The position numbers and the translations under genes are program-made. The notes below the pieces were generated by a model. It made no database searches. It saw nothing but the letters and a program-made list of their open reading frames with translations, and was not told where the DNA came from. 64,000 nucleotides of DNA from a virus, in the IMG/VR virus record IMGVR_UViG_3300033076_001343, positions 8,271 through 72,270 of that record; one strand, written 5' to 3'. The stretch's first letter is position 1. Each line of letters begins with the position of its first letter. This document shows, piece after piece, positions 2,438 to 40,022 of the stretch.

Positions 2438-2518
2438 TACCTTAGGAGGGACTCGAACCCTCACGACTTATGTCACTAGTTCCTAAGACTAGCGTGTCTA
2501 CCATTCCACCACCAAGGC
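2438..2518 (-). tRNA. tRNA-Leu (TAG), type II
   Basis: Anticodon arm CTAGT-CTTAGGA-ACTAG; long variable arm TGACATAAGTCGT; T arm GAGGG-TTCGAGT-CCCTC; acceptor has G.U pairs. Confidence 0.8.
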
Positions 2519-2623
2519 ATATATATCACATCAGACGGGCATTCTACTTCCAGCACCGAGAAATCGTATCTAATTTAACCCTACTCACCGCTGTATGGGT
2601 ACCTGAAGATATGATATATTTTG

Positions 2624-2697
2624 TACCCCCGTCAGGATTCGAACCTGAGACCTACTGCTTAGAAGGCAGTTGCTCTATCCATCTGAGCTACGAAGGC
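2624..2697 (-). tRNA. tRNA-Arg (TCT)
   Basis: D arm TAGCTCAGATGGATAGAGC; anticodon arm ACTGC-CTTCTAA-GCAGT; T arm TCAGG-TTCGAAT-CCTGA; acceptor GCCTTCG/CGGGGGT has three wobble pairs. Confidence 0.75.
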
Positions 2698-2705
2698 AAA
2701 TTTAG

Positions 2706-2790
2706 TACTCGGAGCGGGAATCGAACCCGCACGGGCGTAAAGCCCACAAGATTTTAAGTCTGGCGTGTCTACCTATTCCACCACCCGAGC
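2706..2790 (-). tRNA. tRNA-Leu (TAA), type II
   Basis: D arm near-identical to Leu(TAG); anticodon loop CTTAAAA; variable-arm hairpin GGGC-TTTA-GCCC; T arm GCGGG-TTCGATT-CCCGC. Confidence 0.75.
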
Positions 2791-2848
2791 ATTTATTATT
2801 TCAAAGAACTATGGTACAAATATAATTGATTTTTTGGAAAGATACAAG

Positions 2849-3616
2849 TTACTCAGCAAAACTTTCTTCATAAATTGTATCGGTCTGATTTTCTTCAGTA
2901 TTGTAAGTGTGTTCTAAAGTCACTGTCGAATCGTTAAAGTTGAATGTAAAAACACCATCAGAACCTTCATTGATTTCCCACCCTCCAAAAGCATTTTCAA
3001 GCTCTCTGTAACACCAATTTTCTATTTCAGCGGGTACTGCATCGCCAGTTGGGTCGAATGAACTTTCAATATAACCTGAGTCACCTCCACCATTATATGG
3101 TAATGTTAATATACCATCATTTGGAATTTCAATTTCAGACATGTCATTTTCCATCCATCTATCAAATCTTTCTTTGTCTTCATCAGAATCAAATTCAACC
3201 AGATGACCATTGTCCCTACCATAATAATAAAGTTCATGTGTTACAGAAATTACTTTCTCTTCTGTGTCTATGCCAATTGATGCCCTTTGATTACTAATAT
3301 AATCAATGTCAATATCATTATTTAGATTGTCTAACGAATCGGCATATTCAAGAACTTTTTTTAAGATAGGCTTCAATCCTTCTGGTATGTCTGCAGTATA
3401 ACTGTTGTCAAATCTAGTTACGTGATTCCAATTAACGTCTTTTGAATTAATTTTATCGTCATCTTGTTCCATCTCAATGTCGACATATCCTCTTTTCAAA
3501 CCTAAAGAATTCAAATAGTTTGAGACTCTTCTTAGATATTTTTTTTCTTCTGGTGTTAATATTCCTTTCATATTATTAAATATCAGTCTTCTATGTTCAT
3601 TGTCCTCAACATCCAC
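2849..3616 (-). CDS. acidic hypothetical protein (in tRNA array)
   Basis: 255-aa ORF, D/E-rich; start may be the internal Met at about 3571 to avoid overlap with the upstream gene. Confidence 0.5.
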   Translation of the reverse strand: MDVEDNEHRRLIFNNMKGILTPEEKKYLRRVSNYLNSLGLKRGYVDIEMEQDDDKINSKDVNWNHVTRFDNSYTADIPEGLKPILKKVLEYADSLDNLNNDIDIDYISNQRASIGIDTEEKVISVTHELYYYGRDNGHLVEFDSDEDKERFDRWMENDMSEIEIPNDGILTLPYNGGGDSGYIESSFDPTGDAVPAEIENWCYRELENAFGGWEINEGSDGVFTFNFNDSTVTLEHTYNTEENQTDTIYEESFAE

Positions 3617-3930
3617 TGAGGTCGTTTATTTTCTGAAATATTTATAATCCATTCTTTTGCAGATGGAACATAGTTATTACAATCTTCTCTAACATGTTGT
3701 TCACCAACATAACGAGTGTAAACTATTTTTCCATCACTATTCAAGAATTCGGCACCAAATCTTTTTTCCATTTCAAAGATACCTTCACTGTGGTGTCGAA
3801 ACATTCTATGCAAAGAATCTCCCAACCAACCTTTGGTCTCATCCATCCATTCATGTAGATGAATATAATCTTCAGGTTTTCCACCGAACTTTTTTGCGGA
3901 ACTTTTTGCGTGTAAATTTGGATGTGCCAT
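3583..3930 (-). CDS. hypothetical His-rich protein (115 aa)
   Basis: The six-frame ORF 3583-4119 runs through the tRNA-like gene at 3946-4020; I truncated it to the Met at 3928-3930 (MAHPNLHAKSS...). Confidence 0.5.
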   Translation of the reverse strand: MAHPNLHAKSSAKKFGGKPEDYIHLHEWMDETKGWLGDSLHRMFRHHSEGIFEMEKRFGAEFLNSDGKIVYTRYVGEQHVREDCNNYVPSAKEWIINISENKRPQWMLRTMNIED

Positions 3931-3945
3931 AAGTTTATTTAATAG

Positions 3946-4020
3946 TGGAGCCAGTGGGAATCGAACCCACCTCAGAAACATTGCAAGTGTTTCTCGCCAA
4001 GCCTTGGTACATGTAACCCC
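3946..4020 (-). tRNA. tRNA-like, possible tRNA-Ala (TGC) with poorly formed D arm
   Basis: T arm GTGGG-TTCGATT-CCCAC; anticodon arm GAAACA-CTTGCAA-TGTTTC (anticodon TGC); acceptor GGGGTTA/TGGCTCC needs several G.U pairs; D arm non-canonical. Confidence 0.4.
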
Positions 4021-4247
4021 ATTAACTTGTCTTGTCTGTCTGTTCCATGTTTTGTTGACTGTAAGCATCACAATCAACTTTTTCAACTTTACATGAGAAC
4101 AAAGCAAACCCGAGAACAATCAAAATTATAACACCGAATGCGATACGAAATTTTGTTTCTAAATTTTTTTCATCTTGTTCCATAATCTTATTTTTATAGT
4201 ATAACGTATTAATTCGGTACTTTGGTTGTTCTTTGTTAAAAATTTTG

Positions 4248-4321
4248 AGCCTCCTGAGGGATTCGAACCCACGACCCGCTGATTACAAATCAGCTGCTCT
4301 GGCCAACTGAGCTAAGGAGGC
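4248..4321 (-). tRNA. tRNA-Thr (TGT)
   Basis: GCCTCCT-TAGCTCAGTTGGCCAGAGC-A-GCTGA TTTGTAA TCAGC; perfect acceptor pairing; one mismatch in the T stem. Confidence 0.85.
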
Positions 4322-4326
4322 GATTT

Positions 4327-4402
4327 TGGCGGTCCCAACGGGATTCGAACCCGTACCTCGCACCGTGACAGGGTGGAATTGTAACCATTCAACCATGAGA
4401 CC
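4327..4402 (-). tRNA. tRNA-Asp (GTC), CCA encoded
   Basis: Anticodon loop CTGTCAC on a 4-bp stem; T arm ACGGG-TTCGAAT-CCCGT; 3' end TGGGACC-G-CCA encoded. Confidence 0.7.
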
Positions 4403-4619
4403 AAGTTTCCCCACCTGAGATTACAGTAAGTAGATATTCATAGTTTTTCTATTCAAAACCCATAGCGTCTTACCGCTTAAAAGTCAACCATATACTCGGA
4501 GGTCAAGATGGTCTTCTTGCCTTTTTTCCGACGACCCCTTCTTCTAAAACCGTGAGAGGCGTTAGCTATACCATTTTTCAGTAACGGTACCAAAACTACT
4601 GAGTATCTCTTACTCATTG

Positions 4620-4692
4620 AGCGGGAGACGAGGTTCGAACTCGCGACTTATAGCTTGGAAGGCTATCGCTCTACCAACTGAGCTACTCCCGC
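4620..4692 (-). tRNA. tRNA-Gly (TCC)
   Basis: GCGGGAG-TAGCTCAGTTGGTAGAGC-G-ATAGC CTTCCAA GCTAT; acceptor perfectly paired. Confidence 0.85.
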
Positions 4693-4694
4693 AG

Positions 4695-4769
4695 TGGAGC
4701 GGGAAGGCGGAATCGAACCGCCGTATCCACCTTGGCAAGGTGGCGTAATAACCATTATACTACTCCCGC
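4695..4769 (-). tRNA. tRNA-Gly (GCC), CCA encoded
   Basis: Anticodon arm CCACC-TTGCCAA-GGTGG; T arm GGCGG-TTCGATT-CCGCC; 3' TTCCCGC-T-CCA. Separated from Gly(TCC) by 2 nt. Confidence 0.85.
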
Positions 4770-4912
4770 TTTTTTTATTTTCTCTTTCTAATCAGTTTCT
4801 TCAGTTTTCTTAACAAATTAATTTCTTTACCTGCAATTATAAATTCCTTTTTTCCTGATTCGAAAGTTCCTGATAAAACTTTTTTCATCATTCTTCTTTT
4901 TTATTGTTTATT

Positions 4913-4987
4913 TGGCGGTCTATGCGAGAATCGAACTCGCGGCACATCCGTGACAGGGATGTATGTTTGCCACTACACCAATAGACC
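4913..4987 (-). tRNA. tRNA-Asp (GTC), second copy, CCA encoded
   Basis: GGTCTAT-TG-GTGT AGTGGCAA ACAT-A-CATCC CTGTCAC GGATG-TGCC-GCGAG TTCGATT CTCGC-ATAGACC-G-CCA. Confidence 0.8.
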
Positions 4988-4993
4988 GTATTG

Positions 4994-5065
4994 CGTCCCC
5001 TCAAGGATTCGAACCTTGGACCTATTGGTTAACAGCCAATTGCTCTACCGCTGAGCTAAGAAGAC
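4994..5065 (-). tRNA. tRNA-Asn (GTT)
   Basis: Anticodon arm ATTGG-CTGTTAA-CCAAT; D arm TAGCTCAGCGGTAGAGC; T arm CAAGG-TTCGAAT-CCTTG. Confidence 0.85.
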
Positions 5066-5072
5066 GTAAATG

Positions 5073-5146
5073 TCGGGGTGGCAGGATTCGAACCTACGAC
5101 CTCTTGGTCCCAAACCAAGCGCGATACCTGGCTACGCTACACCCCG
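5073..5146 (-). tRNA. tRNA-Pro (TGG)
   Basis: Acceptor CGGGGTG/CACCCCG; anticodon arm CTTGG-TTTGGGA-CCAAG; T arm GTAGG-TTCGAAT-CCTGC. Confidence 0.85.
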
Positions 5147-6003: not shown

Positions 6004-7316
6004 CCATATGCAGCACATTGTACCAATTTACCCTTAACCTTTTTCACTTTTTCGGGACCGCCTCCGCCGCCTCCACCACCTTTTGGTTTATAGGTACCTT
6101 TTGCGGGTTTTAACTTACCATTAAACTCTTTTTGTTTATATAATGGATTTAATTCTAATGTATATCCTTGGGATTTTGTAACAATAGGTTTTACAGGTTC
6201 TACCCCTGTTTGACTTGCGGTTATCTTAATTTTTGCAACAACAAGACAGAATTTGTATTGGTCAGATTCAATTTGTGTGGATAATAATTGACCATAACCA
6301 AACACTTGTCTTTTACTATCGGGGCCAGATAATTTATCCGCACCATTTGATGAATAACTCATTCCGTTTGTGGTTCTCCCATCATAAAAAGTAAATCTGT
6401 TTGCTGGGTCGGGTCCACTAGAACCATCACCATTATATCCACCTCTTAAAACTTTTTGAAGACCTTGTCCTAACCCAACGCCGATTGATGATAACTTTTG
6501 AGTTATTAATTGGTAAACTTTTTCTCCCCTATCCATTGATAATTTGTTCCAAGTTTCTCCTTCGTAATCACCAGTGTTTCTTAATCTTGAACAACTTGAA
6601 GCAACTTCAATTGAAACTAGTTGAGCAATAGCGTTAGGATTGGTCGCCTTGATGTCATCAATTTGTCCCTTAGCGTCTGCAATCCAACTATCAATCGCTT
6701 GTATCAATGTCACGTCAGGTTCGTTTAAGTTGTCTTTATATACTGTTCTACCTGCAACCTCTAAAGGAATCTCAATTTCAACTGACGCTCCACCTGTTGC
6801 TGGTGATGCTGGTGTTGTAGTTTTAACAACATTACCCGCAACCAAGTCTGCTTCCCAATTATAAAGATTTTCTTCTCCTGTATAATTTTGATTTTTTGCA
6901 ATCTGTTTCTCTAATTGTCTTTTCTTAGTGAATGATTGTAAAAATTCTAAAGTTTGTTTTAAGAATTGTAGACGACTTGTTTGATTTAAGTTGAAATAAA
7001 AGATTGCCCTCTCATCATCATCTAACTTGTCCATTAGTGGTTTGTAAGCGGGGTCTTGCTTTAACTGATTAAGTTGATTATTAAAATTTGGATTTTTTGC
7101 GGTGATTTGTTTTTGCTTTGCGGGGGTAAGTCCTGCAGTACTATCTGCATACGTCTCATCAAATAAAACATCAGGATTTTCTTTACCAGTTCCCGATTGC
7201 GTAACTTGACCTGAACTACTCTTTGGGTCTTGCTCAGATATTAAAGGTTTAACTATTCCGTGTTCTGCAAGGAATAAATCCTTCATCCTTTTAATATGTT
7301 CATTTAAATCCATCAT
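6000..7316 (-). CDS. large hypothetical protein with Gly8/Lys-rich C-terminus
   Basis: 443-aa ORF. I set the start at MMDLNEH/MDLNEH, which is immediately preceded (sense) by GGTATTTATATTT. Confidence 0.55.
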   Translation of the reverse strand: MMDLNEHIKRMKDLFLAEHGIVKPLISEQDPKSSSGQVTQSGTGKENPDVLFDETYADSTAGLTPAKQKQITAKNPNFNNQLNQLKQDPAYKPLMDKLDDDERAIFYFNLNQTSRLQFLKQTLEFLQSFTKKRQLEKQIAKNQNYTGEENLYNWEADLVAGNVVKTTTPASPATGGASVEIEIPLEVAGRTVYKDNLNEPDVTLIQAIDSWIADAKGQIDDIKATNPNAIAQLVSIEVASSCSRLRNTGDYEGETWNKLSMDRGEKVYQLITQKLSSIGVGLGQGLQKVLRGGYNGDGSSGPDPANRFTFYDGRTTNGMSYSSNGADKLSGPDSKRQVFGYGQLLSTQIESDQYKFCLVVAKIKITASQTGVEPVKPIVTKSQGYTLELNPLYKQKEFNGKLKPAKGTYKPKGGGGGGGGPEKVKKVKGKLVQCAAYG

Positions 7317-7364
7317 AAATATAAATACCATTCACCATGGAAAAATATGACAATTTAATGTGTA

Positions 7365-7625
7365 TTAAACGTATTTTAAAAATATGTTTTTAAGTGCTTC
7401 CTCGTCTTCAGGTGATAAGTTGTAGTATTTCGACTTGAGTTTGTCAAGTTTTTCATGGAATTCCTGCTCCATTAAACTAATTTTCTCTTTGTCAACCAAA
7501 TCATCACTTTTTTTAATGTAACCGTGAAAAACCAATTCATCAATCAGTTCTTTGATTTCACTTTTTGAACACTCGTCAACATATTCTGACGGGTCGATGT
7601 CGATGTAAGTACTAAACTCTGGCAT
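7365..7625 (-). CDS. hypothetical protein
   Basis: 86-aa ORF in a co-directional tightly packed gene block. Confidence 0.45.
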   Translation of the reverse strand: MPEFSTYIDIDPSEYVDECSKSEIKELIDELVFHGYIKKSDDLVDKEKISLMEQEFHEKLDKLKSKYYNLSPEDEEALKNIFLKYV

Positions 7626-9471: not shown

Positions 9472-9485
9472 CTTTTTTATTTTTG

Positions 9486-9559
9486 TGGTCCCTACAGGAC
9501 TTGAACCTGTGACCTACTGATTATGAGTCAGCTGCTCTGACCAACTGAGCTAAGGGACC
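9486..9559 (-). tRNA. tRNA-Met/Ile2 (CAT), outside the main array
   Basis: GGTCCCT-TAGCTCAGTTGGTCAGAGC-A-GCTGA CTCATAA TCAGT-AGGTC-ACAGG TTCAAGT CCTGT-AGGGACC-A. Confidence 0.85.
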
Positions 9560-12926: not shown

Positions 12927-13631
12927 TTGTATCATACTAAATTTTTAAACATGAATTACGGAAAAGAATTTTACGCTTATTACACAAAACACTTGGGAAA
13001 ACCATCATCACACTTGGATTATTTTTCCAACCAAATCGAATCATCTATGACTCCTTATATTTTGGAGGAAAGAGAAATGAGGGCAACACAAATGGATATT
13101 TTCTCTCGTTTGATGAGAGACCGTTTGTTATGGGTTGCTGGTCCTGTAAATGACCACATGTCAACGATTGTCCAAGCACAGTTAATGTTCCTCGATTCGA
13201 CTGATAAATCTGACATTACAATGCACATTGACTCACCAGGTGGTAGTGTAAAATCAGGATTGTCTATGGTTGATGTTATGGAATATATCTCATGTGATAT
13301 TCGTACAGTAAACACAGGAATGGCAGCGTCCATGGGTTCAGTGTTATTAGGCGCAGGAACCAAGGGTAAACGTTCATCATTACGTTTTTCTCAAACAATG
13401 CTACACCAATCTTCAGGTGGTGCGGTTGGTAATATTCAAGACGCTCGTATTAATATGATTGAGTGGGAGAAAGTTAATAATATTTTATTTGAGTTGTTAG
13501 GTTCTTACTGCGGTAAGCCAGCAAAACAGGTTATGGAAGATGCTACTCGTGATTTATGGTTAAGCGCGGAAGACGCTCTTCAGTACGGGATTATTGATGA
13601 AATCGTTAAAACAAAAAAGAAGGGTAATTAA
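12927..13631 (+). CDS. clpP: ClpP-family serine protease
   Basis: Ser-His-Asp ClpP core (DSPGGSV...MGSVLL...QTMLHQSSGG). TATATTTG motif upstream. Start may be the internal Met at about 12951. Confidence 0.85.
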   Translation: MYHTKFLNMNYGKEFYAYYTKHLGKPSSHLDYFSNQIESSMTPYILEEREMRATQMDIFSRLMRDRLLWVAGPVNDHMSTIVQAQLMFLDSTDKSDITMHIDSPGGSVKSGLSMVDVMEYISCDIRTVNTGMAASMGSVLLGAGTKGKRSSLRFSQTMLHQSSGGAVGNIQDARINMIEWEKVNNILFELLGSYCGKPAKQVMEDATRDLWLSAEDALQYGIIDEIVKTKKKGN

Positions 13632-13723: not shown

Positions 13724-14395
13724 TTAAGATGTTTTTAATTTAGCCTCAACTTTTTTGGCGTTATTAGCAAATTTACCAAATAAGTCACAAACCGTGTCAG
13801 ATATACTGTTTTCAATACTTGTTGCGAATGAAGTACCTGTAATAGCGTCCGCTAATGTGTTTCTTAAAAACGAATATCCTGGTGCGTCAAATCCTTTTTG
13901 TCTTTGTAATGACATAACCATACCTTCAACAATACTTTCAGATACTAATTTTGTCATCAATTTACAATCAGACATTGACCTAATTACTTCGGAAGGTCTT
14001 GAAGTTAAGTACGATATAATAAAATTAGACATAAAACCTTCCCCAAATAAAGGAGTAACAATCTTACCTATTAAAGGTTCAAAAATTGTTTGAGTAGCAT
14101 TACCAAAAAATCCACCAAATAAGGATTTAAACACACCACTTAAATCTTGTTCAGATATTAATCCATTTGTTTGTAAGTATGACAATTCATTTAAAATATT
14201 GTAAGATAGTTGAGCCTTTTTATCTTCGGTTAATTCATTGAACTCGTCCTCACTTTGGACGTGTTCAACAAGAATTGAAAGTCTTGTTTTAACTAAATGA
14301 TTCTCAATAATTCTCTTTTCTTTTTGTTCTTTGGCCTCAAGTAGGGACCTTCTAATTTTTCTCTCTAACATGATTTTAATTATTTTAGCATCCAT
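13724..14395 (-). CDS. hypothetical protein
   Basis: 223-aa ORF; the overlapping + ORF 13755-14093 is judged spurious. Confidence 0.5.
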   Translation of the reverse strand: MDAKIIKIMLERKIRRSLLEAKEQKEKRIIENHLVKTRLSILVEHVQSEDEFNELTEDKKAQLSYNILNELSYLQTNGLISEQDLSGVFKSLFGGFFGNATQTIFEPLIGKIVTPLFGEGFMSNFIISYLTSRPSEVIRSMSDCKLMTKLVSESIVEGMVMSLQRQKGFDAPGYSFLRNTLADAITGTSFATSIENSISDTVCDLFGKFANNAKKVEAKLKTS

Positions 14396-15408
14396 TTAGA
14401 ATCATCATCCCATAATGTTGGCCCTCCAGACTTGGCACCTGTAAGTATGTCAATTATATCATCAGTTTTACCTCCACCTAATGCACCCCAATCACCATAG
14501 AATTCATTTTTACATGCCTGAGACTTCTCTTTTAAAGCATTAAATTCATTTGGTTTTAAAGGTCTCTTTTTCTTCCATGAAATGTAATATGCCTCTATTG
14601 TATCTTTACAGTCTTTTTTATCTGTAGGTATTCTACTTTCAACAGCATTTTGAATTACTGTTGTAATATTCTGACCAGATTGAAGACCTTGAGTACTTGC
14701 AGGGTTAAAATACATTACCAAGTCTTGAGGGAAATATCCGTCAGATGCGGGACTAACAACTTGAGATTTAAAAGTTTTAATTTCCTCAGGTGTGAGTTCA
14801 GATTTTAATTTATAACCTTTAGACTTATATTCATCAATAATTGATTGTGCTTTATCTCCAAGACCTTTTTCTAAATTGGAACCCTTTCTCCTGTATAAAT
14901 CAATTCCATCAATTACTTTTTTCTCATACATTGCGGGATTAGAAATATTTTCTTTAGTATCAATTTGTATTAACTCATCATATGATTTCCATCCTCCTTC
15001 TTTCTTAAGAAGTTCAATGTTTGAGTCTGCAACCTTTTTGTCTGCGGCATTTTTTTCTTGTGTTGCAGCATCTTGTGCTGCTTTATTAGCGGCACCTGCC
15101 AATGTAGTCTCAATTGCATCACACTTCCATTTACCACTTTGACTACCGTCAGCAAATTTGAATGTCATGTCCGCAAAAAAGTCAACTTCTTTACTTGGGT
15201 CTTTTGCACTTGGTTTACGATAAAAAACATTACCAGTAGATTTACTTCTTTTCAATGAACCATTTTTCAAACACCCCGCACTAATCGCAATTCTAAGCTT
15301 TTCTAAATCACTTGTAGCATCTTCTTTAATCAAAAATGTATTCTTTTTTTCATTAGAATGCATTTCTAATATAGTTTTAACTTCTTCGTTACTAATATTG
15401 AATTTCAT
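14380..15408 (-). CDS. hypothetical protein with conserved N-terminal leader (...LIKEDATSDLEK)
   Basis: N-terminal ~35 aa alignable with the 15421-16497 product; Lys-rich body. Confidence 0.55.
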   Translation of the reverse strand: MKFNISNEEVKTILEMHSNEKKNTFLIKEDATSDLEKLRIAISAGCLKNGSLKRSKSTGNVFYRKPSAKDPSKEVDFFADMTFKFADGSQSGKWKCDAIETTLAGAANKAAQDAATQEKNAADKKVADSNIELLKKEGGWKSYDELIQIDTKENISNPAMYEKKVIDGIDLYRRKGSNLEKGLGDKAQSIIDEYKSKGYKLKSELTPEEIKTFKSQVVSPASDGYFPQDLVMYFNPASTQGLQSGQNITTVIQNAVESRIPTDKKDCKDTIEAYYISWKKKRPLKPNEFNALKEKSQACKNEFYGDWGALGGGKTDDIIDILTGAKSGGPTLWDDDSKWMLK

Positions 15409-15420
15409 CTTATCTAGTTA

Positions 15421-16497
15421 TTAAATTGCGTTAGGGTCTAATGCATCTACATCCTCGATATCAGGATTTACTACTGTAGTTTTTTTACCACAGATTTTAT
15501 CTATGTCAGCGTCTGTAAAAGAGTCATATCCTAAAGATTTTAATTTTTCTTGTGTTTTTGGACCATACTTACCATCAGGAGTCATACCTAAACATGCCTG
15601 AACCGTCTCAATAGGTTTTGCGCTACAAAGATATTTGTATGTCCCTGTACATGGTTTGTATTTTGATACTCTTGGTACTGGTGGTACTGGATTTCCTCCT
15701 GTTGGGGTTGGTTTTTTATTACGAATTGAACTATCGTCAAAATCTTCAACTAATCTTTTTGTTTCAGATTCAACTACAACTTTTCTACCCTCACAAGTTA
15801 ATGATTTACCCGTATCAACCCATTTAGTACCATTCCAATCTTTTACTGCACCATCATAGAACAATTGGTAAACTCTACCTGAAGTACCTCTTACTTTAAT
15901 AAATGTGTATCTATTAGCATTTATATAAACTTTTTGGTCAACGTTTGAATCAGAATCAAAAACACAACGGAATTTTGCCTTAAATTGGTTAATATTCTTT
16001 TGCTCAGTACTATCAACTCTCAATTTAGACTCTTTTTTGGTTCTGTAATTCATCGCCGAAAATGTATCCATTAATTCCGCTAATTCTTCATCGTCTAACT
16101 CATCAACTAATTTTTGAGCAAAATCGCCATAACCTAATTCTTCAAATTCAGTTTTAATATTACATAAGTCATCCAAATTACCCTTTTTCATTATGTTTGC
16201 TTGAGCTCTCCAAAGACTGTCGTCAGTACCACCCATAAATCCAAGTGTTTGGTAGTTAAATGCTCTATTGAAATTACTTGCGATTGACGCGGCGTCAAGG
16301 GTTCCTTCACCTTCAGCTCTTGACCTACAAGCATCTAACATTTTTTTAACTGACTTTTCAGTGTCAGTATCAATATCATCCTCCTTAATCAATTTAATTG
16401 ATGTTTTATTTTCAGTTAAAGTTTTTGATGTATCGTATCCCATCATTAATTTTACTCTATTTAGAGCTTCTTGTGGGCTGTATTTTGGTTGTTTCAT
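15421..16497 (-). CDS. hypothetical protein with C-terminal peptidoglycan-binding-like domain
   Basis: Leader MKQPKYS...IKLIKEDDIDTDTEK paralogous to the 14380 gene. C-terminus TPDGKYGPKTQEKLKSLGY resembles PG_binding_1. TATTTATAA upstream. Confidence 0.55.
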   Translation of the reverse strand: MKQPKYSPQEALNRVKLMMGYDTSKTLTENKTSIKLIKEDDIDTDTEKSVKKMLDACRSRAEGEGTLDAASIASNFNRAFNYQTLGFMGGTDDSLWRAQANIMKKGNLDDLCNIKTEFEELGYGDFAQKLVDELDDEELAELMDTFSAMNYRTKKESKLRVDSTEQKNINQFKAKFRCVFDSDSNVDQKVYINANRYTFIKVRGTSGRVYQLFYDGAVKDWNGTKWVDTGKSLTCEGRKVVVESETKRLVEDFDDSSIRNKKPTPTGGNPVPPVPRVSKYKPCTGTYKYLCSAKPIETVQACLGMTPDGKYGPKTQEKLKSLGYDSFTDADIDKICGKKTTVVNPDIEDVDALDPNAI

Positions 16498-16543
16498 AAT
16501 CTTTTTTTTATAAATATAACGTTATTACTATAAATATGGTGTT

Positions 16544-16807
16544 TTACCAAATTTGGTTAGCTGCACCTCTAGCTATTCCTGTTTCCCATTTTTGACCTGA
16601 AGCCATTAGTGGATTTGCCTTACCTCTTTTTAATTGATAACTATCTGCCCATTTAGGTACAGAACCACCACCTGTAGAACCACCTGTTGATGGCGATGGT
16701 GTTGACGCCGCAGCATCTTGTTCTCCTAATTCTCCAGTTTCGTCATCTTCTATTGGTTCTGAGTTCTTATTAAAGAAATCAATTAAATAATCTACATCTA
16801 AATTCAT
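16544..16807 (-). CDS. hypothetical Gly/Ser/Thr-rich small protein
   Basis: 87-aa ORF. Confidence 0.4.
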   Translation of the reverse strand: MNLDVDYLIDFFNKNSEPIEDDETGELGEQDAAASTPSPSTGGSTGGGSVPKWADSYQLKRGKANPLMASGQKWETGIARGAANQIW

Positions 16808-16854: not shown

Positions 16855-17391
16855 ATGAAAAAAATCGTCGGTATATTAATGTTTTTGGTTCTCCTAACTG
16901 GTTGTGAGAAATACGTTGTTGAAAAAAGTGACATCACGTTAAGTGGTAAGTATGTAGTCTCAAAATTACATATCGTAAATGTTGACCAAAATCAAACGCC
17001 AGATTCATTATATCTTTTGGGTTCGACATATATCAACGATAAGTTACCGAAACCATTCGATTCAATTGTAATTGATGACTTTTACTTACACATGGATTAT
17101 TCAACCATGAGACTCAATCTATTGGGAGTGTCTCCAACAGGTCAGGACATTTGGGAATATGGAAATTCTCCTGATGAAATTTTTTATAGAATTCTTGGTA
17201 ATAACTCTTATAGTAATGGATACATTCAATTTACTTACATTACCTCAACAGGAGCTTCAGCAACAATGACGTTTTTAATCGAGGATGATGGTTTTGAATC
17301 TCTTCAACTTAAAAGTTCAGGAGCATGGTTTGAAAGTGAGATGGGTGAAAAACAAGTGATGACATTAAGTCTTACTCGAGTTGGACCTTAA
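16855..17391 (+). CDS. putative lipoprotein
   Basis: MKKIVGILMFLVLLTGCEK carries a lipobox L-T-G-C; TATCTTTG motif immediately upstream of the ATG. Confidence 0.6.
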   Translation: MKKIVGILMFLVLLTGCEKYVVEKSDITLSGKYVVSKLHIVNVDQNQTPDSLYLLGSTYINDKLPKPFDSIVIDDFYLHMDYSTMRLNLLGVSPTGQDIWEYGNSPDEIFYRILGNNSYSNGYIQFTYITSTGASATMTFLIEDDGFESLQLKSSGAWFESEMGEKQVMTLSLTRVGP

Positions 17392-17687
17392 TAATATTCA
17401 GGTTTAGGTAAAGACTTTGGATTTACTTCGTAGTATTCATTTAAGAATGAAATTAGAACATCTTCGTCTAATTCAAGTTGTAAGTCCATATAGTCATTTT
17501 CCTCGTCATCATCCTCAAAAAAATTGAAGTAGTCAGATTCTAAAACATAACCGTATTCTTCTGATATTGAATAATCAATATTGTCGGTTCTAAGAACATC
17601 ATCACTATCACTGATAGTTCTAAATGTCACTTCCAAAATGTTGGACTCAGCATTTAAGTAGTATGATACAATTTCTTTAATTTCCAT
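17388..17687 (-). CDS. acidic hypothetical protein
   Basis: 99-aa D/E-rich ORF. Confidence 0.45.
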   Translation of the reverse strand: MEIKEIVSYYLNAESNILEVTFRTISDSDDVLRTDNIDYSISEEYGYVLESDYFNFFEDDDEENDYMDLQLELDEDVLISFLNEYYEVNPKSLPKPEYY

Positions 17688-17805: not shown

Positions 17806-18387
17806 ATGAGAATCAACTCCTTAACAATCGATGATTTTTACGCAAACCCAATGGAGGTTAGAGAATTCGCACTTAAACAAGAATTTAAAGTCAGAGGTAA
17901 TTACCCAGGTCAAAGAACTGAACCATTTTTAACTGACAATACAAAACAAAAATTGAGGGAAATTCTTTATCCGTTTGCGGGTGAAATCACATGGTGGGGT
18001 GGAGAGTATACAGGTTCATTCCAATATACTACCTCAGCTGACAGGTCTTGGATTCATGCCGATTCAACTACTGATTGGGCCGCGGTATGTTATTTAACCC
18101 CTGATGCACCATTATCCGCAGGTACAGGTTTATTTAAACATAAAGAAACTGGTTGGTCTAATTTTGATTATAAAAGAGAAAATGACCCTGAATATATGAA
18201 AGGAGCTCCTCCAGGTCATGACATGCAAGATTACACTAAATGGGAAATGGTTGACCGTGTTGGGAATGTGTTCAACAGATTAATTATGTATCGTGCAGAT
18301 AACTATCACGTATCTTTAGATTATTTTGGTAAGGACATGTATGATGGTCGACTATTTCAAGTATTCTTTTTCAATACTGAACGTTAA
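17806..18387 (+). CDS. 2OG-Fe(II) oxygenase-like protein
   Basis: WIHADS...AAVCYLTPDAPLSAGTGLF...YRADNYH resembles the P4H-type HxD...YLN...GG.T.F...H arrangement. Confidence 0.5.
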   Translation: MRINSLTIDDFYANPMEVREFALKQEFKVRGNYPGQRTEPFLTDNTKQKLREILYPFAGEITWWGGEYTGSFQYTTSADRSWIHADSTTDWAAVCYLTPDAPLSAGTGLFKHKETGWSNFDYKRENDPEYMKGAPPGHDMQDYTKWEMVDRVGNVFNRLIMYRADNYHVSLDYFGKDMYDGRLFQVFFFNTER

Positions 18388-18803
18388 TCTAATTTAGCGT
18401 TCAGTACTATTTCAGGATTTAAGTCATATAATAAATCCGTAATTCCTTCAGGGCAAATACAAAAACCGTTATAGGTTGCGTTAACTAATCTCCTACGATT
18501 AAAAGTTAACATAATAGGTTTAATCATATCAGTATCTTTAATTCTCAAGTCATTTAACGGAGCACCTAAAGCATCTAAAAAATCCATACTATCTTGTATA
18601 TAGGATTCAAAATAAGGGACATCAAAAGACTCTAAAAAATATTTCAAATAATTACCATATTCAATATCTTTCTGACTCTCATCAAATATGGTACGCATCG
18701 AATAACACATACCTTCACCCTTCCAAATAAAGTTCCAAAGATAGTAGTCGTATTTTATACTAATTTTTTCGAAGTCCTGAACAAGAATCTGCTCTCTAAC
18801 CAT
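18384..18803 (-). CDS. hypothetical protein
   Basis: 139-aa ORF. Confidence 0.45.
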   Translation of the reverse strand: MVREQILVQDFEKISIKYDYYLWNFIWKGEGMCYSMRTIFDESQKDIEYGNYLKYFLESFDVPYFESYIQDSMDFLDALGAPLNDLRIKDTDMIKPIMLTFNRRRLVNATYNGFCICPEGITDLLYDLNPEIVLNAKLD

Positions 18804-18804
18804 A

Positions 18805-19392
18805 TTATCTTAAATTTGCCCCACAAAGCCAAGTAACCAAAGAAGTTCTTGTTCCTGAACTTAATGGGGTTACTCTATGTAATAAGAATGACGGAAAGAA
18901 ACACAATAAACCTTTAGATTTAGGGACCGTTAATATACTACCACCAACATTCATTTGTAAGTCGCCACCAACATATTCGCTCGGGTCCGATAATTGTAAT
19001 ACTACCGATAATTTTCTATTTGACAATCCAGGACCTAAATCTAAATGCCAATCATAATGACCTCCATCACCATAATATGTGGTATATTGTAATGAATCGT
19101 GGTATCCCCAAATGTCAAAATTCCACATCTCTCTATTTGCAGTTTTGGCATAATCCGCAATTTTAGAATATAACCAATCACTTTCATTACTTTCACCAAT
19201 CCAAGCAATATCACTAATTCTATAATCTGTGACATCACCATCTTTTCCTACCGACGCCTTTTCCTTAGATAATGAATCCCCTAATTGTTTTATTTTATTA
19301 ATCTCTTCTTCAGAGAATGCATTCTCAAAATAATAGTAATTTAAATGATTTACATTATTTCTTTGTTCAGGTAAAAAATATTTTGATGACAT
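18805..19392 (-). CDS. 2OG-Fe(II) oxygenase (prolyl-4-hydroxylase-like)
   Basis: HLDLGPG (HxD)...RKLSVVLQLSDPSEYVGGDL...FFPSFLLHRVTPLSSGTRTSL (second His and R-x-S). Confidence 0.75.
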   Translation of the reverse strand: MSSKYFLPEQRNNVNHLNYYYFENAFSEEEINKIKQLGDSLSKEKASVGKDGDVTDYRISDIAWIGESNESDWLYSKIADYAKTANREMWNFDIWGYHDSLQYTTYYGDGGHYDWHLDLGPGLSNRKLSVVLQLSDPSEYVGGDLQMNVGGSILTVPKSKGLLCFFPSFLLHRVTPLSSGTRTSLVTWLCGANLR

Positions 19393-19446
19393 TTTAATAT
19401 AATTTGTTATTATAAGTATAGTTGAAATGGGTTAGTATTTCAATAT

Positions 19447-20466
19447 TTGATTATGGTAAAAAAAATTAAATTCTTTGACTCAATAATATTCAGTGGTGAT
19501 GTTGAATTTTTGAAATTCAGATTGACTGAATTAGACCCTTACGTTGATTATTTTATCATTGCTGATTTCAACCATGTGGATAGTGATTTATCGTTCACTA
19601 AAAACAAACATTTATTTGAAATATGGGATGATAAAATTTCTCATTTATCTGTTACTGATACTACATTTTTAAATGACATTAAGAAACAATTTATCAGTTT
19701 AAAACCAAATTTTGAGGATGTTCTAATGATATCTCAAGTTAATGAATTACCCGATTTTAATGATGTAAACGAATTTTTAAATAAACTTAAATTTGATTCA
19801 TTAATGTTAGAACACACTAATTTTATTTGGAGTAAAGATTACATTGATAACGATTTACATAGGGGTACTTTAATGTTTTCGTTTAGTTTAATTTTAAGAC
19901 AAAATAATATAATTAAAACAATATTTGATAGGCGATTTAGTCCTACAATTTACAAAGATACAATTTTTAAAAACGGATGGAGGTTTTCAAATTTTGGGTA
20001 CGATGAAAATCACAAATATCAAATAAATGAATTACTACCTCCAACAGAAATCAATCCAATATCAACTTATAGGTTAATCAAACATAACAATAAAATCCCA
20101 CTACCTAAAAACATACACTTATTACCTTATTTTAAAATAGGACGTGATGAGATTAAAAAACATTTGTTTTTGGTTGAGTCGGATTTGGAGTTTGTTAATC
20201 AAGATTATTACGATACAATCACAATAATTAATTTTAATTCAAATCTCCAAGAAATTTTATGTGAAAAGATTTCAGACAAAATAACAAAAAGTGTGTTATA
20301 TCTACCAAGTAAAGTGTTGTATGGTGACCCTGAAACATTTCAGGACGAATACATGATGAATGAAACTAAACGAATGTTCTCTGTTGTGTTTCCACAAGAA
20401 CAAGATATTATTGAGGTAATCTTTAAAAATGAAAAACCCCTCGTTTTGGGAGGGGTTTCAAATTAA
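19447..20466 (+). CDS. GT17-like glycosyltransferase (putative)
   Basis: N-terminus KIKFFDSIIFSGDVEFLKFRLTELDPYVDYFIIAD resembles the Glyco_transf_17 signature (FNEldlLelRl.eL...vD.FvIvE). Confidence 0.5.
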   Translation: MIMVKKIKFFDSIIFSGDVEFLKFRLTELDPYVDYFIIADFNHVDSDLSFTKNKHLFEIWDDKISHLSVTDTTFLNDIKKQFISLKPNFEDVLMISQVNELPDFNDVNEFLNKLKFDSLMLEHTNFIWSKDYIDNDLHRGTLMFSFSLILRQNNIIKTIFDRRFSPTIYKDTIFKNGWRFSNFGYDENHKYQINELLPPTEINPISTYRLIKHNNKIPLPKNIHLLPYFKIGRDEIKKHLFLVESDLEFVNQDYYDTITIINFNSNLQEILCEKISDKITKSVLYLPSKVLYGDPETFQDEYMMNETKRMFSVVFPQEQDIIEVIFKNEKPLVLGGVSN

Positions 20467-21782
20467 TTGTATTTGTTAAATCTGTTGAACATTTCCATGA
20501 TTCGAGTTCTTTGATTGTTGAATGATTCTTTCAAATCTTCATCAACTTCTTCAAACTCATCTTCTGTTGAGGTAAACTCTTCGTCCTCCTCGTCTAATTC
20601 ACTTTCGTATGAGAATTCTTGGTATGGTCCACCTTTACCTGGTCCATCACTTGTGAAATTATAAGCTCTGTCCATGTCACCGTAGATTCCTTGAACTCCT
20701 GAAATGTCAGGTTGTTCTTCAAGTTCTTCGTCCGCCCAAGCAGATTCCATTTCATCATACTCATACATTTTTTCAGGGTCGTATGAATACATGTCATCCT
20801 CATTAACAGGATATACATCACCAGGACCATCAGATTGGAAATTGTATGCTGGTTCTACATCAGACACATCCATATCATCAGCATCGTACTCAAACATTTC
20901 CATTTCTTCTTCATCCTCAATATCTTCAAGATAATCCTCAATTGATTTTGACCCCATTAAATGTCCTGTATCACCTTGTCTAAAAGAATACATTGGATTT
21001 CCACTCTCATAATGGTGTTCTGAATCAAACTCAAGTTCATGTGGGTCTCCAAGAGGGTTATTATATCTATATTTTTTACCTTTAACTAATTCATGAGTAC
21101 CAAGTTCGTCTAATTCACCATCAGTTACTTCTGAAGAATTAATATCTTCAAACCCATCATCTTCGTTATCAGGGTCATCAACACCATCTTCGGTATAAGA
21201 TGATTCATAATCTTCAAAGTCATCATCATCTTGTTCTTTATAAAGGTTCTTGTGCATTCCTTCAAAAGTGTCATCATCGTTTGATGAACCTTCAATATAA
21301 TCAAAACCTGCGGTTGGGTTTAAATCTTCTTCATGGTAGATATCGTCAAGATGACCAGTACCTTCTTCCATATAGGAACTACCACATTCATTACAAACAC
21401 CTTCATACATAGTTCCACCACATTCACACATTTCTGAACCTTCAGTCATTTCTTCTTCCATGTGTCCGTAATTACATTCAGTACACATACCGTCCATAAT
21501 CATGGAACCACACTCATCACAAACTTCTTTGGTTTCAACTTGTTCGTTAATTCCCATGTTAGTGTATCTTTTTACCTCACCTTTATTGTTAACGACCATA
21601 CCTTCTTTATCCCCAGCAAAGTCGTATACTGTTAATGGTTGAGTGTTAGATACCTGTGGTTGCATTGTTTGGTATCCATTATATAAACTTTTATGTTGGT
21701 TCAAAATATCTTGTTTTTCATTTGCAGATAATTGACCTAGTCCGAAATATCCTCTCATAGTTTTTTTATTTATAAATACCAC
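20463..21782 (-). CDS. extremely acidic protein with tandem CxxC zinc-ribbon motifs
   Basis: CDECGS..CTECNY and CECGG..CNECGS pairs near the N-terminus, then long D/E/Y-rich low-complexity sequence with repeated NF(T/Q)SDGPG. Start is possibly the Met at about 21758, which is preceded by GGTATTTATAAATA. Confidence 0.6.
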   Translation of the reverse strand: MVFINKKTMRGYFGLGQLSANEKQDILNQHKSLYNGYQTMQPQVSNTQPLTVYDFAGDKEGMVVNNKGEVKRYTNMGINEQVETKEVCDECGSMIMDGMCTECNYGHMEEEMTEGSEMCECGGTMYEGVCNECGSSYMEEGTGHLDDIYHEEDLNPTAGFDYIEGSSNDDDTFEGMHKNLYKEQDDDDFEDYESSYTEDGVDDPDNEDDGFEDINSSEVTDGELDELGTHELVKGKKYRYNNPLGDPHELEFDSEHHYESGNPMYSFRQGDTGHLMGSKSIEDYLEDIEDEEEMEMFEYDADDMDVSDVEPAYNFQSDGPGDVYPVNEDDMYSYDPEKMYEYDEMESAWADEELEEQPDISGVQGIYGDMDRAYNFTSDGPGKGGPYQEFSYESELDEEDEEFTSTEDEFEEVDEDLKESFNNQRTRIMEMFNRFNKYN

Positions 21783-29397: not shown

Positions 29398-30021
29398 ATG
29401 GATTTTTTAATTAACGAATCTCAACTGAGATTAATACTTCAAGAACAAGACCAATCTAAAATGACCGATTACATGAAAGAAATGTATTCGTTCACTAAAA
29501 GTTTGGTTGAAAAGTCAAAGAAGATTTATGGTTTGAACCTTAAATTACTTTTGACTTGGGGTGCATCAGTTGGTGGATTTGTATTACCATTAGATAACTT
29601 CATCAAAACAGGGAGATTCAATTTAACTGAAGAACAACAAGTTCTTATCTTGGTTGGTATTGCCTGTACTTACTTTTACGACAACTCAAGAGCCATTAGA
29701 TTAATTTATAAGAAGATTAAAGCTGAAGGTCTTGAAGATGTGTTCAAAGAAGTTTTAGTTAAATCTAAAAACCTAAAAAATTCATTCTTCAAATTCTTAA
29801 ATTCATCTAACATAACTTTAGGTTCAAGTATGGACTTAATAGCATATTCATTTCTAATCCCAATTGTAAATGATATTATGGATGTTGCATATCATGGTGG
29901 TAGTGTGGATACTGCAGTTAATCTAATAGTTAAAAGATTAGTCGCCTCAGGTGTAATTATTGTCAGTAAAATAATATTAACTGACGCAATCAAGAAATTA
30001 GTTAAGAAGTTTAGTCGATAA
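29398..30021 (+). CDS. hypothetical protein with MDFLINESQL leader
   Basis: N-terminus matches the MKYLIKESQ leader family; preceded by GATATATTTATAAGTAT. Confidence 0.5.
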   Translation: MDFLINESQLRLILQEQDQSKMTDYMKEMYSFTKSLVEKSKKIYGLNLKLLLTWGASVGGFVLPLDNFIKTGRFNLTEEQQVLILVGIACTYFYDNSRAIRLIYKKIKAEGLEDVFKEVLVKSKNLKNSFFKFLNSSNITLGSSMDLIAYSFLIPIVNDIMDVAYHGGSVDTAVNLIVKRLVASGVIIVSKIILTDAIKKLVKKFSR

Positions 30022-38201: not shown

Positions 38202-40022
38202 TTAAGGTGTTACTCCAACATGGAGTATTAAATTACCTATATGAGCACCACTACCCCAACTATAAGTATACGACCCCACAGTACAACCTAAAGTCGATAA
38301 TGTTTGTCCTGTGAAAGTTGATTGAGACGTTAAAGTTGTGTTTGAAACATATCCCGTAGGAACAAGTAATTGGTAATCACCTGGCCCGAATAGAAGAATA
38401 CCCATAGGGTCTCCACTTCCAGTATTTGCATTAATTTGACCACCAGAACCAAAATTACTTGGGTATGTTGTTACGCCGCTATATACATCGGATGAGACAA
38501 CTGAACCACCCGCACCTGAACGTAAAATTGATGTACTGGCTCTAACCAATCCTTGGAATGAGGCATTGAATGAATATGACAAATCAGTTGTGTCGAATTT
38601 ACCCGTACCCGACATAACTACATCGGAACCTGATTCAAATAAATACATATTAAACACCGAAGAAATTAATGGTTGTGACCCTGTTGGTGTCTGAGTTACT
38701 GTTGGTGTGTTAGTATTTGTTGGTGTTGGAGTATTAGTTGGTGTTTCAGTATTAGTTGGAGTCGGGCTAACCTCAATAAAATTAGATGATAAGAAATCGT
38801 ACATTTGACCTATTTCAGGGAAAGTTAATTTTCTATCATAGAAATAAAGATTTGCAACGTAACCAAAAGGTTGTCCACCTAATAAATTATTTGCCCACAT
38901 AACATGTATATCTCCACCAGCACCTGCGGCAACAGTACCAACTTGAGTTCCATTAATATAGAAAATTTCAGAAACATTGTCACCAACAACGGCATATTGT
39001 ACCCACATATCTTGAATTGAAGTAACGTCGTATCCTGAATCCACAAACCCAAAATTGTAATATCCTAAATTATCGGTACCAACCTCAACTAACATTGGTA
39101 TATTATTATTTGTCCTAAATAACGTTCTCCAATTAGCGGAACTTGAATTTATTCTTGCCCATCCAACATAAGTATAACCACTCGTAGGCAGGGACGGACC
39201 TGTACCAATTACTTGAATTAGGCTATTACCTGTAGTACAATCAAAACACTTAATACCGTTTAATGTCGTAAAGGCCGCTCCCGAAGATAAAATATTATCA
39301 TATGAACCAGCCAAATCATAAACAGTTGTACCTGAACCAGGATAACTAATAATATTATTAGCATCTAATTGCATTATAAGGCCATTAGTTACAATATTTG
39401 ATGTTGGGGTAACTGTTGGAGTATTGGTTGGTGTTTGAGTCGGTGTCTCAGTATTAGTTGGTGTTTGAGTTACTGTTGGTGTTTGAGTCGGAGTCTCAGT
39501 GTTAGTTGGCGTCGGTGTCTGAGTTGAAGTTTCCGTATTAGTTGGTGTTGAAGTTACAGATGGAGTACCTGTTGGTGTTGGTGTTTCAGTATTTGTTGGT
39601 GTAACCGTAGGAGTTGGAGTTGGATTATTAGTAGGTGTCGGTGTTGGAGTTGATAAAACCCATGAATTCCAATATCCGTTATTTGTTAAATAAATAGATG
39701 CATCATTCCCACTTGCAAATGGTGCTGGAGGACCTCCAACAAATTCATTTGCCAATTCTAAGAAAGAAGGTTCAGTTAGAGCTTGGGACCTTTTAAATCC
39801 TAAACAAGCAAGAATCCCAACGGGTGTTGGTCTATCACAACTAGGCACTGGATAACATATCACATAACCATTTGTTTGGTCTGGACCTCCCCACCATTGT
39901 AGTCCTCCAAAATTCGCACTATACTCCACATCAACCTCTTTGACTGCAATATTACCAACTTGTGTTGTACCTGAAATTAAAGAACCCGTATTATATGCGA
40001 ATATATTTTGAACTACTGACAT
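38202..40022 (-). CDS. fibre-like protein with Thr/Pro linkers and concanavalin/LamG-like domain
   Basis: N-terminal ~130 aa paralogous to the 40058 product; (TPTxTNTE)n linkers; central LamG-like beta-sandwich signature. Confidence 0.65.
   Translation of the reverse strand: MSVVQNIFAYNTGSLISGTTQVGNIAVKEVDVEYSANFGGLQWWGGPDQTNGYVICYPVPSCDRPTPVGILACLGFKRSQALTEPSFLELANEFVGGPPAPFASGNDASIYLTNNGYWNSWVLSTPTPTPTNNPTPTPTVTPTNTETPTPTGTPSVTSTPTNTETSTQTPTPTNTETPTQTPTVTQTPTNTETPTQTPTNTPTVTPTSNIVTNGLIMQLDANNIISYPGSGTTVYDLAGSYDNILSSGAAFTTLNGIKCFDCTTGNSLIQVIGTGPSLPTSGYTYVGWARINSSSANWRTLFRTNNNIPMLVEVGTDNLGYYNFGFVDSGYDVTSIQDMWVQYAVVGDNVSEIFYINGTQVGTVAAGAGGDIHVMWANNLLGGQPFGYVANLYFYDRKLTFPEIGQMYDFLSSNFIEVSPTPTNTETPTNTPTPTNTNTPTVTQTPTGSQPLISSVFNMYLFESGSDVVMSGTGKFDTTDLSYSFNASFQGLVRASTSILRSGAGGSVVSSDVYSGVTTYPSNFGSGGQINANTGSGDPMGILLFGPGDYQLLVPTGYVSNTTLTSQSTFTGQTLSTLGCTVGSYTYSWGSGAHIGNLILHVGVTP
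39400..39660 (-). repeat. in-frame degenerate tandem repeats encoding the (TPTxTNTE)n linker
   Basis: Repeating GGTGTTTGAGT/GGTGTCTCAGT/TTAGTTGG units; similar tracts at 38680-38770, 40500-40570 and 41390-41580. Confidence 0.6.

Follow-up and report, generated by a model that had tools for sequence, protein, structure and literature searches.

The window analysed here is a 64,000-nucleotide stretch of viral DNA (positions 8,271 to 72,270 of the IMG/VR record IMGVR_UViG_3300033076_001343), and its minus strand holds, between positions 20463 and 21782, a single unbroken open reading frame (ORF) for a hyper-acidic protein. The plus-strand frame is interrupted by dozens of stop codons; serine-rich plus-strand ORFs of 49 to 76 amino acids that lie antisense to the gene within 20515-20934 (for example 20704-20934) were rejected as artefacts of its GAN-rich codons. 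Read from the GTG at 21782 the frame has 439 codons, as had been described by a model that saw the DNA letters and their translations without database searches (the sequence-only reading). Eight codons into it stands an ATG (21758), from which the protein has 431 amino acids and begins MRGYFGLGQL. Because more than 100 full-length homologues start exactly at the position of this ATG (with MRGYF or MK..), and because a conserved upstream element lies 12-22 nucleotides before it, we take ATG 21758 as the start; on this sequence comparison it is almost certainly the true one, in place of the GTG. The coding sequence then occupies 20463-21758 on the minus strand, with its stop codon at 20463-20465, as judged from the ORF, its translation, the homologue starts and the ratio of nonsynonymous to synonymous substitution rates (dN/dS). 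Pairwise dN/dS against five homologues, over aligned positions only and with dS near saturation, was 0.10-0.19 for the whole gene and 0.05-0.17 for its acidic tracts. The gene is real and under purifying selection.

The 439-residue form contains 68 Glu, 53 Asp, 40 Gly, 30 Tyr, 28 Ser, 27 Asn and 25 Met, in agreement with the D/E/Y/M-rich composition first reported; Asp and Glu together number 121 (28%) and Lys and Arg together 26. Its computed net charge is -95, and that of the 431-residue form -97, so the earlier estimate of well below -100 was a slight overstatement, and an acidic run that had been quoted as EDDDDFEDYESS... in fact reads EQDDDDFEDYESS... This is by far the lowest net charge in the window, where the runner-up stands at -36, and few phage proteins could be expected to be more negative. 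Per residue it amounts to -0.225, about three standard deviations from the window mean of -0.029 (standard deviation 0.063). Two other window proteins are strongly acidic, those of 41990-42592 (-0.16 per residue) and 2849-3616 (-0.14), both on the minus strand.

Such a charge fits the Ocr-like role put forward by the sequence-only reading, in which a soluble cytoplasmic mimic of DNA, or of polyanions more generally, would sequester type I restriction or bacteriophage exclusion (BREX) systems, nucleoid proteins or RNA polymerase. A net charge of -97, about -0.22 per residue, speaks for this explanation; we take this density to be within the range of Ocr. So do the Tyr and Phe residues interspersed in the acidic tracts. 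Like Ocr (gp0.3 of T7) and ArdA, the protein is encoded by a phage or mobile element and has an extreme negative charge density. The same reading also offered a role in neutralising packaged DNA or polyamines; taken with the structural and genomic evidence given below, neither role has positive support, and we regard a mimic as unlikely, though second among the explanations weighed.

Residue numbers from here on refer to the 431-residue form, all of whose parts are on the minus strand. AlphaFold2 with the family alignment gave a mean predicted local distance difference test score (pLDDT) of 54.6, with values below 50 at 228 of the 431 residues. About 75% of the protein is of low confidence or disordered, and the only confident elements are a helix at residues 12-23, a barrel at 221-285 (pLDDT 81-89) and a helix at 407-430. 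In the family alignments used (94 members and 143 members) the best-conserved parts are the two termini. The conserved N-terminal domain, residues 1-80 (21519-21758; pLDDT 55-75), defines the family; it contains the helix LSANEKQDILNQHK (residues 10-23; 21690-21731), followed by short hairpins. Near-invariant positions are E14, I18, L19, H22, Y26, G28, Y29, P41, L42, D46, D50, K51, G53, G60, Y65, N67, I70, N71 and E72, in a family consensus that reads M..YF....LS..EK..IL.QHK..YNGY.TMQP.VSN.QPLYV.DFA.DK.G..VNNKGEVK.Y.N.GINE. In most distant homologues the best-matching stretches fall within this domain.

Two cysteine clusters follow. Knuckle 1, CDECGSMIMDGMCTEC (CDEC-x8-CTEC, residues 80-95; 21474-21521), has the form C-x2-C-x8-C-x2-C, a spacing conserved in the family, and knuckle 2, CECGGTMYEGVCNEC (CEC-x8-CNEC, residues 111-125; 21384-21428), is a C-x1-C-x8-C-x2-C variant. 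All eight cysteines lie inside 46 residues, a clustering with a chance probability of about 1.5e-6 by simulation. The 2-8-2 spacing occurs in 229 of the 340 units counted in the family and the 1-8-2 spacing in 60; per homologue (n = 243) there are no knuckles in 42, one in 73, two in 117 and three in 11. Two clusters had been correctly seen by the sequence-only reading, with a spacer given as nine residues instead of eight and with both clusters read as CxxC pairs where one pair is CxC. Its further suggestion of a metal-dependent fold at one end of the protein is borne out as far as the family-conserved CxxC-x8-CxxC spacing goes; the units are minimal knuckles that come after the 80-residue N-terminal domain and are not terminal, and their number varies from zero to three. 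That they are zinc knuckles is supported at the sequence level, from which metal binding is predicted. An AlphaFold model of residues 1-140, a check that the same reading had proposed for what it called a Zn-ribbon domain, was built from the 143-sequence alignment and reached a pLDDT of 58 (44-60 in the knuckles) and a predicted template modelling score of 0.21, too poor for a fold search. Minimal zinc ribbons and rubredoxin-type knuckles (CxxCG ... CxxC) likewise have two Cys pairs about eight residues apart, often with CxxCG; unlike them, the protein matches no Pfam zinc-ribbon model, and it differs in its CxC pair, its varying copy number and its low AlphaFold2 confidence.

Knuckles of the Cys4 type are frequent in small regulators, and the protein might accordingly be thought a transcription or regulatory factor that would use its knuckles and acidic region to bind either RNA polymerase or a sigma factor of the phage, in the manner of an anti-sigma factor or an acidic activator. 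A related phage does encode a sigma factor of the extracytoplasmic function (ECF) type (described below with the leader peptides). The knuckles are dispensable, however, as the 42 homologues without any show, and we found no ZAS motif (H-x3-C-x2-C), no adjoining sigma gene and no family match, which makes a regulator the least probable of the explanations that we weighed.

Between the knuckles and the C-terminal helix run two acidic disordered regions with an optional domain between them. Region 1 (residues 126-220; 21099-21383) has pLDDT below 50, carries the conserved motifs GHLDDIY and DLNPxxGFDYIEG, and shows the low dN/dS given above for the acidic tracts. Region 2 (residues 286-402; 20553-20903) carries the conserved motifs MESAW and SGVQGIYG and the two NF(T/Q)SDGPG repeats that had been noticed from the sequence, in full AYNFQSDGPG (304-313; 20820-20849) and AYNFTSDGPG (365-374; 20637-20666). 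The two copies are identical at 22 of 30 nucleotides and are therefore old copies and not the product of a recent duplication; 121 of 243 homologues have both. The intervening domain (residues 221-285; 20904-21098) is predicted to be a small beta-barrel, possibly five-stranded and SH3/Tudor-like, and is the only confidently folded domain of the protein. It is an insert found in about half of the aligned members (alignment occupancy about 50%) and is the least constrained region, with dN/dS of 0.17-0.56. Its top Foldseek matches in the PDB are Tudor/chromo barrels, the best being the 53BP1 Tudor domain (E = 0.037; target-normalised TM score 0.37), which is not significant; Foldseek against BFVD returned generic small barrels and one sequence relative, and similar barrels do occur in uncharacterised phage proteins.

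The protein ends in a conserved segment, EEVDEDLKESFNNQRTRIMEMFNRFNKYN (20466-20552), that includes the amphipathic, net positive helix 407-430 (pLDDT about 75). Residue E411 is invariant and S412, Q416, I420, E422, M423 and R426 are near-invariant; the segment was seen in 172 of the 270 proteins retrieved, with the consensus ..EVDEDLKESFxxQKxxIxEMFNRxxKY. Conserved [LI]xE triplets occur at residues 70-72, 409-411 and 420-422, and two near-invariant ones, INE (70-72) and LKE (409-411), stand at the borders of the conserved termini.

This combination of kept termini and a pliable centre bears on another explanation, a physico-chemical one, that the acidic chain buffers Mg2+, Ca2+ or polyamines or forms an anti-adhesive polyanionic brush on a surface, anchored by a terminus. 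Family members range from about 200 to 600 amino acids with a median D+E content of 26%, and the acidic part varies widely in length while the termini are retained, as a buffer or brush would allow; the aquatic or marine origin of the organism also suits it. The conserved aromatic motifs, among them AY(N/D)FxS(D/N)GPG, and the low dN/dS of the acidic tracts point instead to specific protein contacts, and Pfam revealed neither an EF-hand nor any other motif known to bind cations; EF-hand-like Ca loops were also considered for the acidic tract and rejected on inspection by eye. A buffer or brush seems improbable to us. Long D/E tracts, aromatic anchors and disorder are shared with prothymosin-alpha, nucleoplasmin tails and the acidic/aromatic motifs of histone chaperones, of unrelated lineage and useful as an analogy only; such eukaryotic acidic disordered proteins bind through short motifs.

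The same anatomy counts against the DNA mimic. Known mimics are compact folded proteins with their carboxylates fixed in a DNA-like pattern, and Ocr and ArdA are small compact dimers without metal sites, whereas this protein has 431 residues, mostly disordered, and predicted zinc knuckles. Neither by sequence nor by fold did it match Ocr, ArdA or another mimic of solved structure: Pfam gave no family, the profile search of PDB sequences gave nothing at E <= 1, tblastn gave nothing, and the sole confident domain, the 65-residue barrel, drew from the PDB by Foldseek only Tudor/chromo-like matches with rounded E >= 0.04, not a compact fold with carboxylates arranged like B-DNA.

A word-indexed search retrieved 2031 homologous proteins, none of them named, and an exhaustive search of representatives at 50% identity gave 284 clusters. 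Members occur in 404 IMG/VR viral contigs, over an identity range of 37-91%; none was found in 185,579 bacterial and archaeal species genomes, where a single peptide pattern was used and sensitivity is therefore limited. Occurrence in viral contigs only is what a DNA mimic would show as well. Pfam (hmmscan), PHROGs and NCBIfam gave no family match for the acidic protein, the family profile had no match at E <= 1 among all PDB sequences, and neither tblastn with the protein nor blastn with its neighbourhood matched any of 50,697 annotated phage records. The family is thus one without detectable relatives among known families, within a category, the hyper-acidic phage proteins, that is already known from DNA mimics and from acidic core and scaffold proteins.

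Homologues lie on contigs of up to 309-326 kb, several of them 317-326 kb, which suggests that the phages of this aquatic lineage have genomes of about 320 kb (jumbo phages). The window has a G+C content of 33.6%, and most of its ORFs have no PHROG match. Among its auxiliary enzymes are a carbamoyltransferase, a thymidylate synthase, a T4-type RNA ligase, 2-oxoglutarate (2OG)-Fe(II) oxygenases, phosphoesterases and a ClpP of cellular type. Fourteen tRNA genes lie at 812-5146 and 9485-9559 on the minus strand (Pro x2, Phe, Val, Leu x2, Arg, Thr, Asp x2, Gly x2, Asn and Met); two of the 14 are for Asp, in a phage with an acidic-rich proteome. Some signal peptides in the window end in AQ, GQ or TQ, and TAnnTTTG boxes, which agree with the features of Bacteroidota promoters, precede several enzyme genes; on these two grounds the host is probably a member of the Bacteroidota. 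Such boxes stand before the genes for ClpP, a phosphoesterase, a Pyr_excise-like protein and a cREC-like protein, among others.

The acidic gene itself is headed by a different, promoter-like element, GGTATTTATAAATA (of the TATTTATA type), at 21767-21780 on the minus strand, 9-22 nucleotides upstream of the ATG. This element is conserved in five related loci (L001-L005) despite their differing flanks. More broadly, wherever the start of a homologue could be located (37 loci), the element (GTATTTATA, core TATTTAT) lies 12-22 nucleotides ahead of the ATG, again with diverging flanks. Within the window, sense TATTTAT lies no more than 40 nucleotides upstream of 23 of 90 gene starts, where about 1.4 would be expected, and there are 50 occurrences window-wide on both strands; in the genes that carry it, (G)TATTTAT(A/T) sits 10-30 nucleotides before the start. 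The carriers include two fibre-like genes, a gene with an SLT transglycosylase domain and many of the genes with the N-terminal leader described below, as well as 50136-50717, 52311-52667 and 57587-58969. None of the 16 enzyme genes recognised by Pfam has it, against 23 of the 74 other genes (Fisher p = 0.009). Such a split suggests that the element marks a class of phage-specific transcription set apart from the enzyme genes, and with the host-type TAnnTTTG promoters it suggests two upstream classes in all. At the other end of the gene, directly after the stop codon, an intrinsic-terminator-like hairpin of 10 pairs (five of them G-C) followed by a T-run occupies 20433-20459 on the minus strand.

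As for the carriers, the fibre-like genes (38202-40022 and 40058-41941, minus strand) encode proteins of about 600 amino acids each that have a common N-terminus and long linkers rich in Pro and Thr, one with a Laminin_G_3 domain and the other with a glycine-rich domain. The 219-residue product of 46356-47015 (minus strand) joins a leader and a Ser/Thr-rich linker to an SLT lytic transglycosylase domain, which matches the PHROG families of baseplate hub and lytic tail proteins.

The acidic gene is single-copy and syntenic. In the 85 related loci that we compared it is followed on the same strand by genes for proteins of 99 (77 loci), 87 (70), 358 (61), 342 (60) and 223 (64) amino acids, after which come a lipoprotein gene on the opposite strand (68 loci) and, beyond it, the gene for ClpP (67 loci). 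The 99-residue protein (17388-17687, minus strand), encoded by the next gene downstream in most related phages, is itself acidic at -0.232 per residue; the other four genes of the block lie at 13724-16807 on the minus strand and their functions are unannotated. None of the five gave a significant family match, and a PG_binding_1 match to the 358-residue protein (15421-16497, minus strand) was weak (E = 0.028). A similarly weak PG_binding_1 match (E about 0.03) was seen in the product of 50136-50717 (minus strand), whose N-terminus is of the same LSxxEKxxILxxH type as that of the acidic protein. Together with the SLT domain, these matches are sequence-level hints that some proteins of the block or with leaders act on the cell wall.

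In the window, a variable island (17806-20466) separates the acidic gene from the 99-residue one; it encodes a DUF6445 protein, a 139-residue ORF, a 2OG-Fe(II) oxygenase and a glycosyltransferase resembling family GT17, and was found in just 32-37 of the 85 loci. At its 3' end the glycosyltransferase gene runs into the stop codon of the acidic gene, whose terminator it contains. An island of this sort could hold counter-defence genes, and adjoining it favours the DNA mimic. Against that explanation stand the synteny and conservation of the acidic gene over 37-91% identity, which is unlike the patchy occurrence of most anti-defence genes; the upstream element, which groups it with fibre-like and lysin genes; and its position in the middle, not at the end, of contigs of 310-326 kb. 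Ocr is the first gene expressed by its phage. The conserved synteny and the company kept by the upstream element argue against an Ocr-style first-expressed early gene and are compatible with a polyanion packaged in the virion.

A further set of genes in the window is tied together by their products' N-termini. Otherwise unrelated proteins begin with a near-identical 22-residue leader, MKKIIRLTESDLTRIVKRVIxE, or with a shorter form; of 100 ORFs, 11 show the pattern of the two forms within their first 25 residues, about 0.8 being expected from its internal frequency. The full leader is encoded at 61987-62727, 61515-61973, 58988-59563, 48765-49016, 46356-47015 and 44688-45191, all on the minus strand. 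Shorter forms are found at 63014-63940 (three tandem genes), 57587-58969 and 52692-53720 on the minus strand and at 29398-30021 on the plus strand; written in general terms, the full leader is M(K/P)K(I/T)(I/V)(R/K)LTESDLTRIVKRVIxE(Q/N) and the shorter one MKY(L/I)I(K/T/N)ESQ. The 22 residues recur almost without change in hundreds of metagenomic proteins that have nothing in common after them. A 45-residue leader profile matched short or truncated proteins only. Identical leader residues in the window often use different codons (9-10 of 16-17), which points to selection on the leader peptide. A text search of the literature for the motif LTESDL returned nothing. The ECF-type sigma factor mentioned above (Sigma70_r2 and r4_2 domains; locus L086, IMGVR_UViG_3300043466_002831, 6539-7462, plus strand) has before its sigma domain both the N-terminus MKYIITESQ and, internally, a copy of the leader (IKITESDLTRIIERIIQEQ); it could have arisen by gene fusion or be a sigma factor tagged with the leader.

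The acidic protein is linked to these leader-bearing genes through its N-terminal helix. A 36-residue profile of the family N-terminus, run against the 306 ORFs of the window, matches residues 1-20 of four other proteins, those of 52311-52667 (E = 4e-4), 50136-50717, 14380-15408 and 42714-43007, and these are among the five best matches after the query itself; the shared feature is the helix LSxxEKxxILxxH. N-termini of this kind grade into the far more conserved 22-residue leader and its shorter form. For the first of them the likeness extends further: the 118-residue product of 52311-52667 (minus strand) is a paralogue that shares the N-terminal domain, with a helix LSEQEKNSIREQH and a hairpin (hmmsearch with an 80-residue profile, E = 7e-6, profile positions 1-59), and its gene carries the upstream element as GTATTTATAA.

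We tentatively favour, among the explanations weighed, a reading in which the acidic protein is a late-class polyanion associated with the virion or its assembly and docked through its conserved termini. What places it first is the anatomy of the protein, the companions of its gene in the TATTTAT class, the weakly leader-like N-terminus, the conserved single-copy status and the restriction to viruses; even so, the reading is less likely to be right than wrong. Anatomy, conservation, synteny, viral restriction and the shared upstream element are observations, from which we infer the late timing, the virion association and the role of the charge. The protein would be a disordered polyanion with two docking ends, one made up of the 80-residue N-terminal domain and one to two zinc knuckles and the other of the basic amphipathic C-terminal helix, joined by a chain of about 270 residues rich in Asp, Glu and Tyr and bearing short conserved aromatic motifs. 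It would form part of the head of a jumbo phage of about 320 kb, either as a scaffold- or core-like component or as an internal protein that is ejected; its termini would fasten it to its partners in assembly, and the acidic chain would be a filler that either repels DNA or resembles it. A likeness to the acidic prohead core proteins of T4 or the internal proteins of giant phages would be one of role and not of ancestry. Non-shell components of heads that are acidic (the core) or numerous (the internal proteins) are known from gp22, gp67, gp68 and the internal proteins with capsid-targeting sequences (CTS) of T4, and from the ejection proteins of SPN3US and phiKZ. The T4 and giant-phage proteins dock by a terminus and are cut after Glu (PMC5694885); the acidic protein has the INE and LKE triplets, at which cleavage is hypothetical.

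Several findings weigh against this reading. In Pfam, PHROGs, NCBIfam and the PDB sequences the acidic protein has no homologue among structural, scaffold or internal proteins. Classical scaffolds are helical, T4 gp22 included, and the acidic protein is predicted to be disordered. The similarity of its N-terminal helix to the leaders is weak (E = 0.0004 to 0.13). Genes for a capsid protein, portal, terminase or prohead protease were recognised neither in the window nor within 10 kb on either side of the homologues, and for this reason the conserved block cannot be called a morphogenesis module with any proof. The nearby ClpP (12927-13631, plus strand, with an N-terminal extension of about 40 residues) can be ruled out as a prohead protease, since it scores 230 bits with the NCBIfam models of cellular ClpP and 69-77 bits with those of head-maturation proteases. 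Its closest relative is encoded by the 635-kb huge phage LR745206 (64% identity), of which Mar_Mega_1 is described as a sister (PMC9723777); a placing of the lineage with the Mar_Mega-like megaphages or with the 'moraphages' found no firm support. Finally, the name late for the TATTTAT class comes solely from which genes carry the element, and a host-type TAnnTTTG box lies about 50 nucleotides upstream of the acidic gene too.

A hybrid of the particle-associated polyanion and the DNA mimic would have the protein packaged and co-injected as a polyanionic decoy, like IPI* of T4 or the Dar proteins of P1. IPI* is an internal protein of T4 that is injected and protects DNA. The evidence that supports a particle component, together with the charge argument, supports such a decoy also, and there is precedent for internal proteins that are injected and protect DNA (PMC5694885). 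Every step of it is inferred, and a polyanion of -97 beside packaged DNA would be energetically awkward unless neutralised by cations or basic partners; we judge an injected decoy to be a long shot.

The leader suggests by analogy how such cargo might be chosen. The T4 core and internal proteins have short N-terminal capsid-targeting sequences that are cut after Glu, and the paralogous ejection proteins of the giant phage SPN3US all start with the same propeptide (PMC5694885). At its end the leader has (V/I)(I/L)xE, and the acidic protein has INE (70-72) and LKE (409-411) where its conserved termini begin or end. The leader may be a capsid-targeting or propeptide signal, comparable to the T4 CTS (PMC5694885), or a degron. 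That it constitutes a previously undescribed targeting system, an expanded counterpart of the T4 CTS by which dozens of unrelated proteins would enter the capsid and which would be cut off behind its Glu, with the acidic protein (its LSxxEKxxILxxH helix being a diverged form of the leader) as one cargo co-injected as a disordered DNA decoy against host defences, is in our estimate a slim prospect; the leader and its resemblance to the Glu triplets are a lead and not a result. The shared leader is, in our view, more surprising than the acidic protein itself.

If the acidic protein is associated with the particle, it would illustrate how disordered polyanions serve very large capsids in their assembly or in the delivery of DNA. 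As a decoy, it would be the first DNA mimic found to be disordered and to bear Zn knuckles, and it is four times as large as Ocr. On either view the family is the mark of a widespread group of uncultured jumbo phages in which hardly any conserved gene has an annotation, and the shared leader gives a concrete starting point for testing how proteins are targeted in them.

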